Origin: Rhodoferax sp.
Lineage (GTDB): Bacteria; Pseudomonadota; Gammaproteobacteria; Burkholderiales; Burkholderiaceae_C
DNA length: 64,000 nt
NCBI RefSeq assembly: GCF_012927445.1
Contig: NZ_JABBPD010000004.1
Span: 529,039-593,038 of the forward strand
Direction: 5' to 3'
Made by a program: the position numbers and the translations under genes. The notes under the pieces were generated by a model that saw only the letters and a program-made list of their open reading frames with translations, searched no databases and was not told the DNA's origin. Every line of letters starts with the position of its first letter. Position 1 is the stretch's first letter. Below are positions 5,335 through 31,389 of this stretch, piece after piece.

Positions 5335-6819
5335 TCAGGCCGTTACAAAATCGATAAAACCGCGTTCCACATTGGTCGAGACCAGTTTGACGTGGACTTT
5401 GTCGCCGACCTTGAGTCCGTCCGCGCCGCTCACCAGCTTGCCATCGGCGGGCGGGGTAAAAATCCGGACCCAGATGCCGTCGGTGGTGCTGCCGGTCACG
5501 ATGGCGTCATAACGCTGGCCAACGTGCGACTCCAGCAACAGCGCCGCCTCGGACTTGCGCATGCGCCGCTCCACTTTCTGGGCAGAGTTTTCTTGCCGGG
5601 TGCAGTGCATGGCCAGCTCGCCCAGCTCGGCGTTCGAGTACGGCGGCGGCTTGTTCGCCAGCACCGCCTTGAGCAGGCGCGAGGTGATCAGGTCGGGGAA
5701 GCGCCGGTTGGGCGCGGTGGAGTGGGTGTAGTCGCGCACGGCCAGGCCAAAGTGACCAATCGGCGGGCCGCCGGGCGTTTCCACCACATACTCGCCCGAG
5801 CCCATGAGCCGCACGATGACGAGCGACAGATCGGGAAAGCGCAGCGGATCGGCCTGGTGGCGTTTGGCCAAAAAGGCTTCCAGCGCTTTGGAATCGGGCT
5901 CCGCCGGCAAGGTTTCGCCGTATTCCTGGGCCACGGCCACGATGCGCAACCAGCGCTCGGGTGAGCGCACCACGCGCCGCAGCGAGGCGCCGCCCTGCGC
6001 GGCCAGATAACGGGCGGTGCAGCCGTTGGTGGCGATCATCACTTCTTCGATCAGCTGGCGGGCGCGGTTTTGCACTTGCTGGCGAATGTCGATCACCTGC
6101 TCGCCTTCAAACACGGCGCGCGGCTGGAAGGTTTCAAACTCCAGTGAGCCTTCAGCATGTCGGCGCAGGCGCAGCTGCTGGGCCAGGGCGTCCTGGGTGC
6201 GCAGCTGGGCATCCATGCCGGGCACGGCCGCGGCGGCGGCCGGCAGCGCGGCCTCGCCGTCAATCCAGGCGCTCACCGCGTCGTAGGCCAGCTTGGCCTT
6301 GTTGCGCACTTTGGCCCGGTAGACGGTGGAGCGAATCAGCGTGGCGTCGGCGCTGAAGTCCATCTCGGTCACCAGCGCCAGCCGGTCCTGGTCAAAGTTG
6401 AGCGAGGTCAAGTCGGTAGACAGGCGCTCGGGCAACATCGGAAAGATGCGGGCCGAGGTGTAAACCGAGGTGGTGTTGGTGCGGGCGTGTTCGTCAATGG
6501 CGCTGCCTTTTTTGACCAGCGCGTCCACATCGGCGATAGCCACCCACATTTTGACGCCGCCTTGCGGCAAACCTTCGCTGGCGGTGAGCTGATCCAGATC
6601 CAGCGAGTCGTCGTTGTCGATAGAGCACCAAAGTAAATGGGTGAGATCGCGGATGGCAGCGTCGCTCTCGCGGCTGGGGCCGGTGATGGCAGCCAGTTGT
6701 TGCTCCACCCCGGCGGAGAACTCGGGTTGCAGGCCGCGCTCGAACATGGCGCTGGTCGCGATGCGGACAAGGTCTGAGCGGTGATGGTGATGATGGTTGT
6801 TGTGGTTATTGGCGTGCAT
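5335..6819 (-). CDS. RNB-domain (RNase II/R family) ribonuclease, short form
   Basis: SIDNDDSLDLDQ, VAIADV, HFGLAVRDYTHSTAPNRRFPDL and a C-terminal S1-like domain; start placed at MHANNHN (6834 also possible). Confidence 0.88.
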   Translation of the reverse strand: MHANNHNNHHHHHRSDLVRIATSAMFERGLQPEFSAGVEQQLAAITGPSRESDAAIRDLTHLLWCSIDNDDSLDLDQLTASEGLPQGGVKMWVAIADVDALVKKGSAIDEHARTNTTSVYTSARIFPMLPERLSTDLTSLNFDQDRLALVTEMDFSADATLIRSTVYRAKVRNKAKLAYDAVSAWIDGEAALPAAAAAVPGMDAQLRTQDALAQQLRLRRHAEGSLEFETFQPRAVFEGEQVIDIRQQVQNRARQLIEEVMIATNGCTARYLAAQGGASLRRVVRSPERWLRIVAVAQEYGETLPAEPDSKALEAFLAKRHQADPLRFPDLSLVIVRLMGSGEYVVETPGGPPIGHFGLAVRDYTHSTAPNRRFPDLITSRLLKAVLANKPPPYSNAELGELAMHCTRQENSAQKVERRMRKSEAALLLESHVGQRYDAIVTGSTTDGIWVRIFTPPADGKLVSGADGLKVGDKVHVKLVSTNVERGFIDFVTA

Positions 6820-7018
6820 GCGGGCAATATACATGCAGCGCCCGCAGCCCAGCCGTGGCGCTGACCGTGCCGGGGGGCGTCTTGGAGGGCCTGAGCCGCT
6901 TACATGCCGACACACTTCAACACAAGTCGACCGCGCACTCTGGATTATTCTGTAGGTTCTCCGTAATGTCAGCAACCCGTTTGATGAAGTGATGAACTTC
7001 AACTAGGAGTGAATTGAT

Positions 7019-7483
7019 ATGAATCCCCAAGATACGCCCGAGGGACAGGCCCCGGGAGAATTGACAGGACAGGTGTCGGAAATCACGATTGCCCAGTTGG
7101 TCGGCGAGGTCTATGAATCCGCGCCGCCGGTAGAGAAAAGTCGTCTGCTTGAGCATTTATTGCGGCCATTGGGGGTGCTTTCGATTGTGGCCGTGGCCAA
7201 TGGTATCTTCGCCAATATCCGGTTTCGAGGCGGCTGGCAGGACATGCACGTTCGCCCCGAAGAAGCCCAGAACGTGCAAGCCAGCGATGTCATCACCCTG
7301 GTCAACCATGTGCAGCAGGTCAGCTTTCACGCCGTCGATGGCTTGGCCAAAATGCTGGCGGCCTCGCCGGTGATGACGGGCTCGGCGGCCGCGGCGCTGC
7401 TGGTCACCGTGCTGATGCAGCGCGCCCGAAGCCGCCGCGCCAGCGACACAGCGGGCATCGATGATTCTTTGGTGCCGGACTGA
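7019..7483 (+). CDS. Hypothetical protein
   Basis: 154-aa ORF with GGAG RBS and typical codon usage; no family recognised. Confidence 0.6.
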   Translation: MNPQDTPEGQAPGELTGQVSEITIAQLVGEVYESAPPVEKSRLLEHLLRPLGVLSIVAVANGIFANIRFRGGWQDMHVRPEEAQNVQASDVITLVNHVQQVSFHAVDGLAKMLAASPVMTGSAAAALLVTVLMQRARSRRASDTAGIDDSLVPD

Positions 7484-7507
7484 CCGCCACACCGAAACGT
7501 CGTCAGA

Positions 7508-8596
7508 TCAGGTAAAGCACTGCATTAGATCGACCGTGGCGCGTCGCCCGACATTGCTGGCATGCTCGGTCAGCCAATTAGTGGCACGCTCGCGGCCCTG
7601 CTCGTTCAGCAGTTCGAGAAAAGGCGGGTGTGCCAGCAGCTTGGTTTCGGTGCGCTGCAGGCTCACCAACTCGCTGGAATCGATCATGTGGAACCGCATC
7701 TTCTGCAGCCGCCGTTCCAGCCGGCCCCAGGTCAGAAAGGTCGGGCTTGAAAACTCAATCGCCTGCGCAAACATCCGCATCTCACGCATGAAGTTGGCGC
7801 TGAACGCCAACTCTGCAATGCGCGCCTCGATTTCTTCCACGGTGTGCGGTGTGCCTTCGCGCTTGAGCGGGCTGAGCAGCACCAACAACACGTCGCGCGA
7901 GTCGCAGTCATAAAACAGCGGAAAGACGGCCGGGTTGGCCGCGTAGCCACCATCCCAATAGGGCTCGCCTTCGATCTCGACTGAATGATGAATTTTGGGC
8001 AGACAGGCGGAAGCCAGCAGCACGTCAACGGTGAGTTCGGTTTCGCGAAATATCCGCAGCTTGCCGGTGTTCGCCTGCGTGGTGCCGATGAACAGCTTGA
8101 AGGGGCACGCTGCGCGCAAGCGGTCGAAGTCGATCTGCCGATTGAGCAGGTCGCGCAGGGGGTTCAAGTCAAAGGGGTTGAGCTGCGAGGGCGAAAAGTT
8201 GCCGGCCCAGTTGGCGAGCAGCTTGCTGGCGGGCGACAGGCTGATGGCATCGCCCTCACCCCGGGTCATGCTCCCCCAAGGCATCTGTTGGCCCACTTCG
8301 GTCCAGAAATCGGTCAATCCCTGGCGAGCCCCGTCGCGGCCGCCCTTCAACCAGCCGTTGGCAAACACCACCGCGTTCATGGCGCCGGCGCTGCTGCCGC
8401 TCAAACCCTCAAACTCCAGCTCCGGGTTGGCCAGCAAGGCGTCCAACACGCCCCAAGTGAAGGCGCCATGGGCGCCGCCGCCTTGCAGCGCCAGGTTGAG
8501 CCGGCGCGGCGCCGGGCGGCTGAAGCGTTGGAGCAAACCAAGGCCCGGCCGGCTGGAGTTGGCTCGGCGGGTGGGGGATGCAGCGCGGTCGGTCAT
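7508..8596 (-). CDS. Patatin-like phospholipase
   Basis: LQGGGAHGAF, GSSAG nucleophile and WDGG motifs. Confidence 0.92.
   Translation of the reverse strand: MTDRAASPTRRANSSRPGLGLLQRFSRPAPRRLNLALQGGGAHGAFTWGVLDALLANPELEFEGLSGSSAGAMNAVVFANGWLKGGRDGARQGLTDFWTEVGQQMPWGSMTRGEGDAISLSPASKLLANWAGNFSPSQLNPFDLNPLRDLLNRQIDFDRLRAACPFKLFIGTTQANTGKLRIFRETELTVDVLLASACLPKIHHSVEIEGEPYWDGGYAANPAVFPLFYDCDSRDVLLVLLSPLKREGTPHTVEEIEARIAELAFSANFMREMRMFAQAIEFSSPTFLTWGRLERRLQKMRFHMIDSSELVSLQRTETKLLAHPPFLELLNEQGRERATNWLTEHASNVGRRATVDLMQCFT

Positions 8597-22449: not shown

Positions 22450-22450
<1 letters not shown>
22121..22450 (+). CDS. ureB: Urease beta subunit
   Basis: [32 protein letters not shown]. Confidence 0.97.
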
Positions 22451-24167
<1,717 letters not shown>

Positions 24168-24168
<1 letters not shown>

Positions 24169-26211: not shown

Positions 26212-26299
26212 GGAAGCGTGGCAGAGTGGCCGATTGCACTAGTCTTGAAAACTAGCAAACCGAAAGGTTTCGTGAGTTCGAATCTCACCGCTTCCGCCA
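26212..26299 (+). tRNA. tRNA-Ser(TGA)
   Basis: GGAAGCG/CGCTTCC acceptor, anticodon arm CTAGT-CTTGAAA-ACTAG, long variable arm, GTTCGAATC T-loop, encoded CCA. Confidence 0.97.
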
Positions 26300-26328
26300 A
26301 ATACTGAGCCCCATGCGGGCTCCCGGTC

Positions 26329-26400
26329 TGTGCTATTAAGCATAAAGTGACCATTTGGACAAGTTATGCCTTATTTCCCAATTGGCCACATTTTGCTTTA
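26329..26400. repeat. tRNA-proximal transposon end with three 17-bp TnsB-like sites
   Basis: TTAAGCATAAAGTGACC (26336-26352, inverted), GGACAAGTTATGCCTTA (26357-26373) and GGCCACATTTTGCTTTA (26384-26400); each 14/17 to GGYCAACTTATGCTTTA. Confidence 0.8.
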
Positions 26401-26469
26401 CTGGAACTTTGTGCTAGGAATCCAATGCGACGCTCAGCCACTGGTAGGCTAATTTCAAAAAAACAATCT

Positions 26470-26505
26470 AAGCTCACCGATACAAAATCGAGTGGGCTTT
26501 TTTTT
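26470..26505 (+). terminator. Intrinsic terminator inside the transposon end region
   Basis: AAGCTCAC-CGAT...ATCG-A-GTGGGCTT stem followed by a T-run. Confidence 0.7.
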
Positions 26506-26613
26506 GCCCAGCCCTGTTGGGGTTCACGCCCAACACACTGTGGGCTTCGCCCGAACTGCACTGGGACTTTGGCTTGTTACTACTGCGCGCAACAACACTC
26601 AGGGACCGCACTC

Positions 26614-26735
26614 ATGCTCACTGGCGAGCTACGCAGCCAAATCGACGCTATCTGGAATTCATTCTGAACCGGCGGCATCTCCAACCCATTGGAGGTGATG
26701 AAGAAAATCACTTACCTGCTTCGACGAACTATGCG
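26614..26735 (+). pseudogene. hsdM: Type I restriction-modification methyltransferase (HsdM) N-terminal relic
   Basis: MLTGELRSQIDAIWNSF*TGGISNPLEVMKKITYLL resembles HsdM N-termini (IDxIWxxFWSGGIxNPLxVIEQITYLL); TGA where Trp is expected, and similarity is lost after about 36 codons. Confidence 0.75.
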
Positions 26736-27886: not shown

Positions 27887-27920
27887 AAAAAAACCCTCAA
27901 CCAATTGCTTGGTGGAGGGC
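27887..27920 (-). terminator. Intrinsic terminator, expression platform of the minus-strand riboswitch
   Basis: Minus strand GCCCTCCACCAA-GCAA-TTGGTTGAGGGT followed by TTTTTT. Confidence 0.85.
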
Positions 27921-27954
27921 AGATACTGAATCTATCAATGAACCTGCAAATGCA

Positions 27955-28038
27955 AATTCTGCAACCCCGTACCGTAGTTTTTGACCTCAGGCCGGAAGCT
28001 TTGCGTCTCAGCCTTTCGACCGATTTGCCTCGTGGCAG
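27955..28038 (-). promoter_or_regulatory. c-di-GMP-I (GEMM-I) riboswitch aptamer, minus strand
   Basis: GAGGCAAA-UCGGUC-GAAA-GGCUGA-GACGCAAAGCUUCCGG-CCUGAG...UACGG-UACGGGGUUGC: GAAA tetraloop, receptor-like motif, and G20/A47/C92-equivalent positions present. Confidence 0.9.
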
Positions 28039-28320
28039 CGAGTCTATCAACTTAAAGCTGCCTTCTTGGGTTATCCAAGGTAGGTGGGTTGGGTATCTGC
28101 TTCGCTAATCGCTGTTGGCAGCCTGCTGGGGAGACCACCAAGGACGCAAGGTTTTGAGCACTTCGCATGACAGGCCTTGCCAGCCCTCCGGCCAAATGGA
28201 ACGTAGGAACTCTTTTGCCAACGAAAAATGTGACCTGAATTGCCAGGCCTCAACAAATGGCGGCCATCCGACACCTAACTCAGTCCAGATTTTCAGTTCC
28301 ACCTAAAAAGTCATTTATGA

Positions 28321-28404
28321 TTTCGCCTGGGCAAACCCTCTGAAAAGTGGGGACGCAAAGCCACCGACCTACGGAGCAATCTATGGTAGCGGAGCCGCTG
28401 GGAG
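28321..28404 (+). promoter_or_regulatory. c-di-GMP-I (GEMM-I) riboswitch aptamer, plus strand
   Basis: GGGCAAA-CCCUCU-GAAA-AGUGGG-GACGCAAAGCCACCGA-CCUACG-GAGCAAUC-UAUGG-UAGCGGAGCCGC: near-canonical 11-nt receptor; G20 = 28330, A47 = 28357, C92 = 28398 equivalents. Confidence 0.93.
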
Positions 28405-28430
28405 TGAAGACTCTCATCGAGCATTTGCGA

Positions 28431-28463
28431 AAGCCCGTTGCCTGCATGGTCACGGGCTTTTTT
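28431..28463 (+). terminator. Intrinsic terminator, expression platform of the plus-strand riboswitch
   Basis: AAGCCCGT...ACGGGCTT stem followed by TTTT, about 50 nt before the ATG at 28512. Confidence 0.85.
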
Positions 28464-28511
28464 GTTGCTCAGTCGATTGGCCCACGACCAAATAAACACG
28501 GAAAACTCTCA

Positions 28512-29903
28512 ATGTATTTGCCAGAAATTCGTTTTACTAAGCTATCCACGCTTGTGGTATCTCTGGCTATCTCTGGCCTTGCACATGCACATCCCTTGGA
28601 TTTCTTGACCCCCGAGCAGCGGGTGTTCATGATGAACAAGTTTCTGCAGTCTCAAAATGAACTGCTCGTTCAACCAGGGAAATCTGGAGCAGCAGATGGC
28701 AGCGGCGCAACGCCATTGACGCTGGAGCAACGGGTAAAGCTCCTAAACTGGTTCGTGACAGGAAAAACCGGCGATGAGGCACAAGCACCCAATAAATTGG
28801 AAGTCGCTGCGGCCAAGCCTGTTATTGCATCTGCCCCTGCGCTTTCGCAGCCGGCACCTGCTGCCGCCCAAAACAATGAAGCAAGCTTGGCGGCTGAGCT
28901 CGACAAATGGGCTGCTCTTCCATCTGGAGTCAAGTTTGAACGGTTCCGTGACGGCTTTGCCATCAATCAAACCCGATACCTCGACCCAGAGGGACGCATC
29001 GTTTCCTATGGCTTTGACGAACAATCAGGTGACTTTACCTATCTTGTACAGAGCGGAAGTGGGCAATTTCTCTTGAAATCAGGCCGTGCCTCAAGCGGGA
29101 ACGAACCCATTGAAATCGGCAAGGCCGAATTGCGAGGGTCCCTATGGGCGGTGACAACGGTTACCGGTAGAAAATTCACGGGCAGAAGGTTGATTCCGCT
29201 TGCTCGGGGGTTCATCGTCGCTCGCGACAACACTGGGTATCGTTATGTTCCGGGCAAAGGCATGACCTCTTTTGCAGCCCCGGAACAGTTCTCCATCGCG
29301 GCACTCCAAAGCGGAAACGTCTCTGGAACTGGTTACATCCTGCTCGAACGGACGCCAGAAGAACAAGCCATGGCAAATAACAGCGTGAGCGCGCTCTTTA
29401 GTAGCGTGAAAGCACTGGGAAGCACCCTCGGAATAGGTAAGAAAGAGGATTACGCCCTGCTGAATATCGATTCCAAAAAACTTGTTCCCATCAACATCTC
29501 CATGGAGGATAAGCGTGTTCAAGTGATGAGCGTCTGTCGCAGGCAAAACTTCATCATGGCGGAGTGCGAGCGGATGGACTCTTACGAAAGCCTGTTTCAG
29601 CCCAATGGGATGCACAACATGACGCACTACTTCTGGCGCATCAATTGGTTCAATGCCGGTGGTCGTCCGATTCTTGTTTCACAAGAAGGTGGATTGACGA
29701 AAGTTGCAGCAACCGATTTGGGTACGGGGAAAAAAGCCATGATTTTTGAGCGCGTAATGGGTATTGCTTCTTTCAATGCTGACCAGGGTGTGGACGGCAG
29801 AATTTCGGTTTCTGCACAGATGGGGTTCAGTACAGAGAAAAAAGACGATATCGTTTCACTGCTGGACTCATCGACACAGGTCTCTTCAAAAGACCCCGAG
29901 TGA
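28512..29903 (+). CDS. Uncharacterised secreted protein B (463 aa), downstream of riboswitch
   Basis: MYLPEIRFTKLSTLVVSLAISGLAHA signal peptide, Ala/Pro-rich linker, apparently beta-strand-rich C-terminal region; the upstream ORF extension overlaps the riboswitch and is not credible. Confidence 0.8.
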   Translation: MYLPEIRFTKLSTLVVSLAISGLAHAHPLDFLTPEQRVFMMNKFLQSQNELLVQPGKSGAADGSGATPLTLEQRVKLLNWFVTGKTGDEAQAPNKLEVAAAKPVIASAPALSQPAPAAAQNNEASLAAELDKWAALPSGVKFERFRDGFAINQTRYLDPEGRIVSYGFDEQSGDFTYLVQSGSGQFLLKSGRASSGNEPIEIGKAELRGSLWAVTTVTGRKFTGRRLIPLARGFIVARDNTGYRYVPGKGMTSFAAPEQFSIAALQSGNVSGTGYILLERTPEEQAMANNSVSALFSSVKALGSTLGIGKKEDYALLNIDSKKLVPINISMEDKRVQVMSVCRRQNFIMAECERMDSYESLFQPNGMHNMTHYFWRINWFNAGGRPILVSQEGGLTKVAATDLGTGKKAMIFERVMGIASFNADQGVDGRISVSAQMGFSTEKKDDIVSLLDSSTQVSSKDPE

Positions 29904-29932
29904 CCCTCAGAGCAGTCGCTTAGCTCGTTTAC

Positions 29933-29961: not shown

Positions 29962-30064
29962 GCCATACTGGCGAGAGACGCAGCAACATAGACGCAGATG
30001 AGCACTCCCAGACCGAAATCAGTCGACAAAAAAACTGGCAGCGTTTGCGACGAGTTTTTTCTTT

Positions 30065-30195
30065 GGTCAACTTATGCTTTATTTTTCACCGTTAGGCCAA
30101 CTTATGCTTTAACGGTCACGCCGTGATGACCGTTTTGAACAGGGAAACGGTCATCAATTGCTTTATTCTGCGGTCATTTTTCACTTAACGGCACA
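30065..30195. repeat. Distal transposon end with four 17-bp TnsB-like sites ending in ACA
   Basis: GGTCAACTTATGCTTTA (30065), GGCCAACTTATGCTTTA (30095), GGTCATCAATTGCTTTA (30149) and GGTCATTTTTCACTTAA (30172), then CGGCACA. Confidence 0.85.
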
Positions 30196-30469
30196 CGGTC
30201 CTTCAGCACATCTGCCCACGGTTGCCCGTCCTGCGGTAACACTCAAGTGGGACCGTCTTGCCTTCAGGCAGCGGCAGACCAATGCATGTCCCCGTCCAAA
30301 AATCCACTTCTGATAACGCAATGGCCTGTTCATTCCATAGCAGTTCTTTCTAGATATTTTGAGAAAAATCAAGCGTTGACAAGCAGGTCAGCCCAGACTA
30401 CGCCCTAAGCCCAACCCGACGGGATTGGAAGGAAGTCACTGCTTCTTATGAAACAAATGTGGAGGTTTC

Positions 30470-30712
30470 ATGGTCAAGGAAGTCTCTCGGAAATCGCCCG
30501 CGGAACCTAGAGCTTCAGGCATTCATCTCTACTCGGTGCACGATCCGATACCGGTCCCTGAGGTCACCGAGTCTGATAGCGAAGCGGCATGGGCGTTGTG
30601 GGAAGACTCCTTATCGACACCAAGCAGTGGGCCGGCGGCTGACTTCAAAAGTACCGTGCCGGCTGAACTTCCACCTTTTCATTTTTTTGATTCACTCAAA
30701 CGCAACCGCTAA
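30470..30712 (+). CDS. Small hypothetical protein
   Basis: 80-aa ORF with GGAGG RBS; acidic PIPVPEVTESDSEAAWALWEDS segment. Confidence 0.55.
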   Translation: MVKEVSRKSPAEPRASGIHLYSVHDPIPVPEVTESDSEAAWALWEDSLSTPSSGPAADFKSTVPAELPPFHFFDSLKRNR

Positions 30713-31389
30713 CCCCAGAGGTCCAGTGGTGGCTCGGTCACGACCGCGCGCAGGATGTCGGACCGCGACACAAAACCGGTAAGAAGACCCTCCTCATCCA
30801 CCACCGGCAGCCCCGGCAAACCGGTGTCCAGCAGAACGCGTGCCACGTGCCGGATATCGGTCTCTGGCGCCACACTCGGCACCGGCGTCGCCATGATGTC
30901 CGAGACGCTTTGCGCCAGCAAGGCCCGCCACACCAGCGCATTGCTGTCCGGCCCTGGCAGGAGATCGGGGCGCAGCAAATCGGCACGGGACAACAAACCC
31001 ACCAGTGTTGCCGCGTCATTCACGACCGGCGCCTGACCCACACCCTGACTGGCGAGGATTTGCCACGCCTGCAGCACCGTCGCCGTGTGCGGAATGGCGA
31101 TCACGGTGCGGCTCATCAAGGCCGCCACCTGCGTCAGGGGTTGGCGCTCCAGCACCACCTTCTGGGTCTGGGCGTAAGCCGCCAGCGCCGTGCGATGCGC
31201 CTCGTCGCTAGGGGCGGGCTGCGCAGGCCCGGCAAAGGCGCCAGGAAAAGCGGATTGGGCATCGCGCCCATCACGCCCGACGGCCTGAATCGCGTGGTTG
31301 CGGGCAACCGCACTGACACCGCCAACTTGACGCAACTGCTCCAGCGAGCCACGAAACAACTTACCCGCCAAGCTATATACCGAGAACAT
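30709..31389 (-). CDS. CBS-domain protein
   Basis: Two CBS repeats (LMSRTV...APVV...GLLSRADL; IMATPV...LPVV...GFVSRSDIL). Confidence 0.88.
   Translation of the reverse strand: MFSVYSLAGKLFRGSLEQLRQVGGVSAVARNHAIQAVGRDGRDAQSAFPGAFAGPAQPAPSDEAHRTALAAYAQTQKVVLERQPLTQVAALMSRTVIAIPHTATVLQAWQILASQGVGQAPVVNDAATLVGLLSRADLLRPDLLPGPDSNALVWRALLAQSVSDIMATPVPSVAPETDIRHVARVLLDTGLPGLPVVDEEGLLTGFVSRSDILRAVVTEPPLDLWG

Follow-up and report, generated by a model that had tools for sequence, protein, structure and literature searches.

Two divergent c-di-GMP-I riboswitches, predicted to be OFF switches of secreted-protein genes, in an islet with Tn7-like ends in Rhodoferax sp.

This study examined a divergent pair of cyclic di-GMP (c-di-GMP) riboswitches in a 64,000-nucleotide stretch of the Rhodoferax sp. 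contig NZ_JABBPD010000004.1 (positions 529,039 to 593,038; hereafter the window, to which plain coordinates refer). The pair lies in an islet together with two genes that encode putative secreted proteins, protein A (P0001) on the minus strand and protein B (P0002) on the plus strand. With moderate confidence, we explain the locus as two independent class-I OFF riboswitches, each of which would terminate the transcription of one secreted-protein gene, in a horizontally acquired islet with Tn7-like ends.

We searched the whole window against Rfam 15 by using cmscan, the gathering score of the c-di-GMP-I family (RF01051) being 35 bits. The results revealed one aptamer on each strand, both aligned to model positions 1-87 of 87: a plus aptamer at 28320-28402 (61.3 bits, E = 1.5e-9) and a minus aptamer at 27957-28039 (61.1 bits, E = 1.7e-9). 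An earlier, sequence-only reading of this DNA had proposed two divergent GEMM-I aptamers, with Rfam as the check, and the search bore this out; the aptamers were where that reading had placed them, but its coordinates were off by 1-2 nt and the gap between them is 280 nt, not about 285. The motifs it had named were also recovered in the cmscan alignment, including the G at the position equivalent to G20 of the Vc2 aptamer. Both aptamers contain GGCAAA, a GAAA tetraloop on the first helix, and an intact GACGCAAAG core, with a receptor-like motif on the second helix (CCUACG/UAUGG in the plus aptamer and CCUGAG/UACGG in the minus aptamer), and compensatory changes over seven leaders back the aptamer helices. 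Judged from these features, both are almost certainly genuine c-di-GMP-I aptamers. A whole-genome search yielded three RF01051 matches in the 3.94-Mb genome, two of which form the islet pair; of 30 other genomes of the genus, 17 contain RF01051 aptamers, none of them paired.

The third aptamer of the genome (contig C5:107535-107628, plus strand, the same as L003:1501-1594; 51.8 bits) sits 5' of a long open reading frame (ORF; L003:1646-3094) with a C-terminal GGDEF diguanylate cyclase domain. It could close a feedback loop, with c-di-GMP regulating an enzyme that makes it. The host genome contains 42 genes with a GGDEF domain and hence a rich c-di-GMP network, in keeping with the host c-di-GMP lifestyle switch to which the sequence-only reading had linked the two genes.

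The unpaired nucleotide at model position 11, located 5' of the first G-C pair, is G in both aptamers (28330 in the plus and 28029 in the minus aptamer), and model position 83 is C in both. In Vc2, G20 and C92 are the nucleotides that read the two guanines of c-di-GMP, and relatives of Vc2 that sense cyclic GMP-AMP (cGAMP) carry A at position 20 (PMC6140456, PMC5888326). Model positions 11 and 83 are here taken to correspond to G20 and C92; this mapping is itself indirect and tempers what can be said of ligand specificity. The presence of G rather than A is nevertheless robust because G also occupies the positions on either side in both aptamers. We infer that both aptamers are specific for c-di-GMP. 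It is very improbable that one of them senses 3',3'-cGAMP or is a non-functional relic. Some class-I aptamers do bind cGAMP, position 20 is not the sole determinant of specificity (the G20A variant of Vc2 is bispecific; PMC6140456), and the plus aptamer contains non-canonical A-C and C-A pairs in the second helix and a U-U pair in the first. Against these points stand the G at the mapped position in both aptamers, with wild-type Vc2 binding cGAMP only at about 10 uM (PMC6140456), full-length matches whose scores exceed the gathering score by a wide margin, and the conservation of the plus leader across genera with compensatory changes.

Each aptamer is followed by its own intrinsic terminator and then by a gene with a signal peptide, and no protein regulator is evident at the locus; the sequence-only reading had stated both. 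The plus terminator (28430-28463; AAAGCCCGUUGCC-UGCAU-GGUCACGGGCUUU, stem -18.3 kcal/mol, followed by U6) precedes the gene of protein B (ATG 28512 to 29903, plus strand), which encodes 463 amino acids comprising a signal peptide, an Ala/Pro linker, and a beta-propeller-like core. The minus terminator (27887-27920; GCCCUCCACCAA-GCAA-UUGGUUGAGGGU, stem -16.0 kcal/mol, followed by U7) precedes the gene of protein A (GTG 27862 to 26876, minus strand), which has 328 codons and a stop codon and encodes a signal peptide and a conserved CxxGC motif; the protein was analysed as 329 residues, with one extra upstream residue. Both genes are monocistronic, one behind each terminator. The terminators start 28 nt (plus) and 33 nt (minus) past the aptamer without overlapping it, and they fold with the aptamer enforced as well as without it. 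The plus terminator is kept in five orthologous leaders. Between the plus aptamer and its terminator lies a small hairpin (28400-28415, plus strand; GGGAGU-GAAG-ACUCUC), which is retained in the orthologous leaders through compensatory changes, three of its pairs being altered on both sides. In the seven-leader alignment of aptamer, hairpin, and terminator, 88.9% of the cells were paired and 11 pairs had changed on both sides, a result that none of 500 shuffles reached.

The full-length minimum free energy (MFE) folds of both leaders contained the terminator with or without the aptamer enforced, and equilibrium folding therefore cannot decide between ON and OFF. We then analysed transcripts cut before the 3' arm of the terminator, duplex energies, ensembles, and length-by-length folding trajectories. 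In the plus leader, the strands concerned are strand A (GGUAGCGG, 28385-28392, plus strand), which lies inside the 3' side of the aptamer, and strand T, the 5' arm of the terminator (GCCCGUUGCC, 28433-28442, plus strand). In the truncated ligand-free fold, strand A paired with CCGUUGCC of this arm and enclosed the small hairpin; the truncated RNA had an energy of -43.6 kcal/mol ligand-free and -35.8 kcal/mol with the aptamer enforced. In the minus leader, strand A (GGUACGGGGUUGCAGA, 27958-27973, minus strand) likewise lies inside the aptamer and is the alternative partner of strand T, the terminator 5' arm (UCUGCCCUCCACC, 27911-27923, minus strand). Its segments GGU..GGGG..GCAGA paired with strand T in the truncated ligand-free fold, and the energies were -43.9 kcal/mol ligand-free and -39.2 kcal/mol with the aptamer enforced.

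For the five leaders of the plus type (type 1), RNAduplex gave -15.4 to -21.5 kcal/mol for the A:T duplex, which thus equals in strength the terminator (T:H; -14.4 to -20.0 kcal/mol), and the fraction of shuffled arms that matched the A:T duplex was 0.005-0.05. In the plus ensemble, 5.4-6.9 A:T pairs were expected at every 5' end tried. The MFE trajectories of both leaders passed from the aptamer to an 8-bp antiterminator, with the second aptamer helix dissolved, and then to the terminator; in the plus trajectory, the terminator arm had earlier paired briefly with the 5' junction strand that holds the G20 equivalent. The second U of CCCGUUGCC is a mismatch in the terminator of all seven leaders and forms an antiterminator pair with an A of GGUAGCGG in five of the seven, a pattern that favours the antiterminator.

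This architecture, in which aptamer and terminator coexist and an antiterminator is transient, matches that of the riboswitch Cd1 of Clostridioides difficile, where the antiterminator consists of the 3' strand of the aptamer and a switching strand and refolds with time to the terminator (PMC9262584). Because of this match, both leaders are predicted to be OFF switches. Folding indicates that the plus leader is probably a Cd1-like OFF switch, and for the minus leader the models lean, by a narrower balance, to the same logic. The sequence-only reading had left it undecided whether the two switches share one logic or oppose each other; the present prediction is that they share it, with moderate confidence that is lower for the minus leader.

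Several observations weigh against the OFF assignment. Because the terminator is present in both full-length states, the assignment rests on kinetic, co-transcriptional reasoning. The A:T duplex of the minus leader is marginal (-14.5 kcal/mol in RNAduplex; shuffle fraction 0.055), and its ensemble contained 5.8 expected A:T pairs with a 5' end at 28060 and almost none with a 5' end at 28039 or 28032. In the related leader L072, the A:T duplex is poor (-6.6 kcal/mol). Across the leaders, 90% of the antiterminator helix is paired, a fraction that 41 of 500 shuffles also reached, but none of its pairs has changed on both strands. Two-sided change is not to be expected in this helix, since the aptamer constrains one of its strands, and covariation therefore gives no independent proof. 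The five type-1 leaders are orthologous and are not independent samples. Finally, neither our own scan nor a general promoter scan of the spacer revealed a convincing promoter for the minus leader.

These weaknesses bear on the opposite assignment, in which one or both leaders are ON switches, c-di-GMP prevents termination, and the proteins are made at high c-di-GMP, that is, in the biofilm state. Class-I aptamers can act either way, as the pilM-type ON and Cd1 OFF switches demonstrate (PMC9262584), and expression at high c-di-GMP is the pattern of many surface proteins controlled by this messenger. The presence of the terminator in both folded states leaves room in the modelling for an unseen relay, the antiterminator of the minus leader is weakly supported, and a possible 4-bp P1 helix (CCUG/UGGG; our own reading) in the plus leader would compete with the small hairpin. 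This P1 extension is, however, not conserved in the orthologous leaders. In class-I ON switches, aptamer strands form part of the terminator, which makes the two folds mutually exclusive (PMC9262584), whereas complete stand-alone hairpins lie downstream of both aptamers here; moreover, the only alternative partners found for the 5' arms belong to the aptamer and would be sequestered by ligand binding. On balance, we consider an ON switch unlikely at either leader.

In the predicted OFF mechanism, strand A (GGUAGCGG in the plus leader or GGUACGGGG..GCAGA in the minus leader) would capture the 5' arm of the terminator as this arm emerges from the polymerase in the absence of ligand, and the 5' junction strand with the G20 equivalent would also pair transiently with it. 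The short-lived antiterminator would let the polymerase read through into the gene. With c-di-GMP bound, the aptamer would be locked, the 5' arm would be free to form the terminator, and the gene would be silenced. If both switches are OFF, the two proteins would consequently be made at low c-di-GMP. Because the switches lie on separate transcripts, the divergent layout would have no mechanistic consequence beyond co-regulation.

Two further observations concern the leaders. A mid-stem position of the terminator is mismatched in all seven leaders and in both terminator sequence types (alignment columns 142/157; 28438 and 28451 in the plus leader, with an equivalent in the minus leader); antiterminator pairing may explain this in part, and a tuning of terminator strength is also possible. 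A linker segment, GCAUUUGCG, was considered as the switching strand and rejected: although it pairs with the core of the aptamer in L004 as well as in the window, it is not conserved in L005, L006, and L037.

The 280-nt spacer between the aptamers (28040-28319) is the expected seat of two divergent promoters. The general promoter scan found nothing in it, and our own scan found a single, weak sigma-70-like candidate, which serves the plus leader (-35 TTCAGT at 28292-28297 and -10 TATGAT at 28316-28321) and would place the transcript start right at the aptamer. The minus and plus leaders are 53% identical overall and 62% identical in the aptamer; with 53% identity, we rejected the possibility that the minus leader is a recent copy of the plus leader.

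We surveyed aptamers around the relatives of P0002 at 23 genome loci, 33 metagenome loci, and 11 further contigs. An aptamer lies 5' of the P0002 orthologue in Rhodoferax antarcticus (57.9 bits), a Comamonadaceae genome (55.7 bits), Variovorax sp. (52.3 bits), and two metagenome lineages (51.7 and 74.4 bits). No aptamer was found upstream of five other close orthologues (64-70% identical) or upstream of any of about 50 more distant, shorter homologues. In all, 6 of 11 close orthologues have the aptamer. From these sequences, it appears that the sensor was gained or lost patchily within the P0002 gene family. In a translated comparison, the homology of the window to the aptamer-bearing loci was confined to 28316-29918, which comprises the aptamer, the platform, and the gene. 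The neighbours of this unit differ every time and include McrBC, Abi, MmeI-type methylase and Eco57I genes, a phage-type integrase, pilins, and ordinary metabolic genes. Since the neighbours differ everywhere, the plus riboswitch and its gene form a mobile or at least itinerant unit of 1.6 kb.

The minus leader behaves differently. At the loci compared, P0001 homologues never adjoin P0002 homologues. The short contigs with P0001 homologues showed no aptamer at the gathering score, L071 having room for one and L070 providing only 143 nt of upstream sequence. The minus riboswitch-gene unit and the back-to-back pairing were seen only here. Thus, the sequence-only reading of a portable module that plugs in two proteins is supported only in part, through the recurrence of the plus unit.

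Among the neighbouring genes, the P0002 orthologue at L080 (4844-7003), which lacks a riboswitch, lies near a PAS-GGDEF-EAL gene, and that at L094 in Variovorax (6661-7812), which has one, has a response regulator with HD-type domains (PF13487 HD_5 and PF01966 HD) in its vicinity. These neighbours hint, anecdotally, at a broader connection of the P0002 family with c-di-GMP. Both islet proteins (clusters P0003 and P0082) are also represented, by identical or near-identical copies, on 18-19 JGI metagenome contigs and on a Logan contig of 3,943 bp. The length of the latter is close to the 3,867 bp of the element, and contig breaks at the termini of the element would be a hint that it occurs in several genomic contexts.

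The islet starts 29 nt past the 3' end of a tRNA-Ser(TGA) gene (26212-26299, plus strand; ARAGORN, with 56.7 bits for the Rfam tRNA model), which is the putative attachment gene, and it is 3,867 bp long. Its GC content is approximately 50%, compared with approximately 63% in the flanks and the genome. Both flanks are shared by 24 genomes of the same genus that lack the two genes and their leaders; a methylase remnant of the islet is matched in three. We infer that the islet was horizontally acquired and probably is, or was, mobile.

The left end, by direct reading, consists of the 5-bp duplication CGGTC (26324-26328) and the terminal repeat TGTGCTATTAAGCATAAAGTGACC (26329-26352, plus strand), which is unique in the genome at up to four mismatches. 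Two more copies of an approximately 18-nt end motif follow at 26357-26375 and 26384-26402 on the minus strand, opposite to the left terminal copy (22.9 and 23.3 bits in a position weight matrix). The right end has four copies on the plus strand, at 30065, 30095, 30149, and, as the terminal copy ending in GGCACA, 30172-30195, followed by CGGTC at 30196-30200. The islet is thus framed as CGGTC-TGTGCTATTAAGCATAAAGTGACC ... GGTCATTTTTCACTTAACGGCACA-CGGTC, with TGT/ACA termini, a terminal inverted repeat matching at 18 of 24 positions, and an exact 5-bp duplication. By the weight matrix, the end motif ATAAAGCATAAGTTGACC has seven sites of at least 21 bits, all at the two ends, and no site above 20.1 bits elsewhere in the genome. 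The four right sites are co-oriented, and the left sites comprise one correct terminal copy and two reversed copies. TGT/ACA termini and a 5-bp target duplication are known features of Tn7. The ends suggest that the islet probably is, or derives from, a Tn7-like element.

A number of searches returned results that count against this origin. No transposase is present in the islet, where the two genes and the ORFs at 26347-26667 and 30459-30782 (the latter just outside the right end) had no Pfam match, the other short ORFs of the islet not having been searched; as no TnsB, TnsA, TnsC, or TniQ lies inside, the element would be "non-autonomous" at best. The end motif had no match around the TniQ and rve loci of the same genome (C8 and C5), and gave only single hits at the control level in 400 genomes of the order; the right end of the islet had no match in plasmids. 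An exact empty site was not found in the relatives because the sequence past the tRNA-Ser varies among them (in G002, a retropepsin-like gene is located there). Two of the three left-end sites are reversed relative to a canonical Tn7 end; nested or adjacent insertions yield extra ends in Tn7-like elements (PMC8649781), and the reversed copies may have been left by another insertion next to the first.

The same facts are the case for another origin, in which the islet is what remains of a different, decayed integrative element or a variable hot spot downstream of the tRNA-Ser, the motifs bind another protein, and the riboswitch genes are ordinary island genes. The missing transposase, cognate element, and exact empty site, the variable region downstream of the tRNA-Ser, the two inverted left sites, and the absence of motif clusters from the 400 genomes and the plasmids all fit it, and the methylase remnants at 26590-26720 and 29967-29995 point to rearrangements. 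It accounts poorly for an exact 5-bp duplication right outside TGT/ACA termini with an 18/24 repeat, the chance of which is about 0.001 by our own calculation, and for seven strong sites at the two ends only. The fixed short distance past a tRNA gene is the typical placement of Tn7-like elements (PMC8649781), and the repeats contain no copy of the tRNA 3' end. We rate this origin as rather improbable. Islands inserted by tyrosine integrases leave such a copy of the tRNA 3' end.

For the Tn7-like origin, the sequence-only reading had spoken of transposon cargo. The end architecture (CGGTC, TGT...ACA, the 18/24 repeat, and the seven unique sites) speaks for it, whereas the transposase, a cognate element, and an empty site are missing, and transposon cargo is a plausible reading of the riboswitch pair. 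A bolder account, which we put forward tentatively and with less than even confidence, is that the islet represents a Tn7-type mini-element devoid of a transposase, with two secreted proteins as its entire payload, each with a protein-independent c-di-GMP sensor that would wire it to any c-di-GMP-using host on arrival, and that a beta-propeller-like family repressed by c-di-GMP travels as a riboswitch-gene unit through variable and defence-island regions.

Elsewhere in the genome, paired TniQ loci lie at C8:93076-102760, together with an rve integrase-type gene, and at C5:560981-563591, which runs into the contig end; both are probably autonomous Tn7-like elements. Within the islet, the reversed left copies (26357-26402) form a near-palindrome with the terminal copy (TTAAGCATAAAGTGACCA TTT GGACAAGTTATGCCTTA). 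Remnants resembling the 5' end of a methylase gene are located at 26590-26720 and 29967-29995 (translation ...LTGELRSQIDAIWNSF*TGGISNPLEVM...); the former is approximately 90% matched in other genomes of the genus, and the start of this remnant recurs just behind the P0002 gene as a 29-nt direct repeat (83%). These sequences suggest that the payload of the islet was assembled by recombination in a restriction-modification context. The Rhodoferax orthologue of P0002 also adjoins MmeI/Eco57I-type genes.

Neither P0001 nor P0002 had a match in a profile search of Pfam, NCBIfam, PADLOC, or PDB, and neither has a paralogue in its own genome. Both have signal-peptide-like N-termini (KNIKKFGFLGLAFALNAWA/V and ...LVVSLAISGLAHA/HP, judged by eye). 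A terminator-like hairpin lies behind the P0002 gene (29933-29961, plus strand; -15.8 kcal/mol, followed by U4). The P0002 family comprises about 80 homologue clusters, all annotated as hypothetical, with relatives in Variovorax, Rhodoferax, Pseudoduganella/Duganella, Janthinobacterium, Crenobacter, Marinobacter, Thiomargarita, and metagenomes. An AlphaFold model of P0002, built from 17 sequences, had a predicted local distance difference test (pLDDT) score of 72 with a confident beta-rich core, and a fold search returned only generic propeller matches of the Kelch/WD40 type (TM 0.3-0.4). The model weakly suggests a beta-propeller-like core, with no further assignment. P0001 has three homologue clusters besides its own, in whose alignment CxxGC and a C-terminal motif are conserved; its AlphaFold model (pLDDT 45.7) was too poor for a fold search.

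Outside the islet, the Rfam search of the window also matched the Helicobacter "5' ureB sRNA" family (RF02514) at 22613-22898 on the minus strand (99.4 bits), antisense within a 572-residue ORF at 22450-24168, which is probably the urease alpha-subunit gene. The most likely reason for the match is that the coding sequence of urease is conserved, and not that a small RNA gene is present.

Class-I aptamers, terminator platforms, and c-di-GMP control of secreted and surface proteins are already well known, and the present findings leave the knowledge of the riboswitch class itself unchanged. What is mildly new is the predicted common OFF logic, the itinerant riboswitch-gene unit, and the possible Tn7-type carriage. 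Two uncharacterised families of secreted proteins gain a first functional handle, in that their expression appears to be tied to c-di-GMP, probably at low levels of it, and this makes P0001 and P0002 candidates for motile- or dispersal-state factors in freshwater and soil bacteria of the Comamonadaceae type. As the plus unit demonstrates, a riboswitch can travel with its gene, as a module of 1.6 kb, across very different contexts. If the Tn7-like origin is true, cis-acting RNA sensors would make acquired genes regulatable with no imported regulator. If the tentative mini-element account is also true, these would be the first riboswitches described as functional transposon cargo, and they would define a new family of c-di-GMP-repressed beta-propeller-like secreted proteins.

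Compared with known systems, the islet shares with Tn7-like elements the site arrays, the insertion downstream of a tRNA gene, the TGT/ACA termini, and the 5-bp duplication; it differs in that these elements carry tnsA, tnsB, tnsC, and tniQ, which the islet lacks, and in the inversion of two of its three left sites. Arrays of repeated transposase-type sites at both ends and "safe site" insertion downstream of tRNA genes have been described for Tn7-like elements (Benler et al. 2021, PMC8649781), and that paper, in which the word riboswitch does not occur, names none as cargo.

The 3',3'-cGAMP riboswitches of the GEMM-Ib group (Geobacter pilM and Gs1761) share the fold, the Rfam family and clan, and transcription-termination platforms with the leaders described here. 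They have A at the G20 position, act as ON switches, and use aptamer strands in the terminator, as in the pilM switch (PMC9262584), whereas both leaders here have G and stand-alone terminators. In the Bacillus cereus group, a triple tandem (Bc3-5) and an element with two terminators (Bc1) have been described (PMC4759541, PMC11218506). The shared features are more than one class-I aptamer per locus and terminator platforms; the Bacillus aptamers lie in series on one transcript that serves one gene, whereas those of the islet lie on opposite strands, in separate transcripts, and before separate genes. No cooperative or logic-gate behaviour is therefore expected here.

With Vc2 of Vibrio cholerae, the structural prototype of the class, both aptamers share the GNRA tetraloop, the receptor-type docking motif, the ACGCAAAG core including A47, and the ligand-reading G and C. 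Relative to CCUAAG/UAUGG, the receptor motif is one base off in the plus aptamer and two bases off in the minus aptamer. Vc2 is not known to have a comparable terminator platform, and it is described as an ON element. A close counterpart is the OFF switch Cd1 in the flgB leader, with which the two leaders share a class-I aptamer, a separate terminator, a transient antiterminator, and a terminator at equilibrium, the latter features being modelled here. Cd1 precedes a flagellar operon, whereas the present switches serve monocistronic secreted-protein genes in a betaproteobacterial host, with a predicted logic. A further difference from Cd1 is that the modelled antiterminator encloses the small conserved hairpin in the plus leader and two hairpins in the minus leader.

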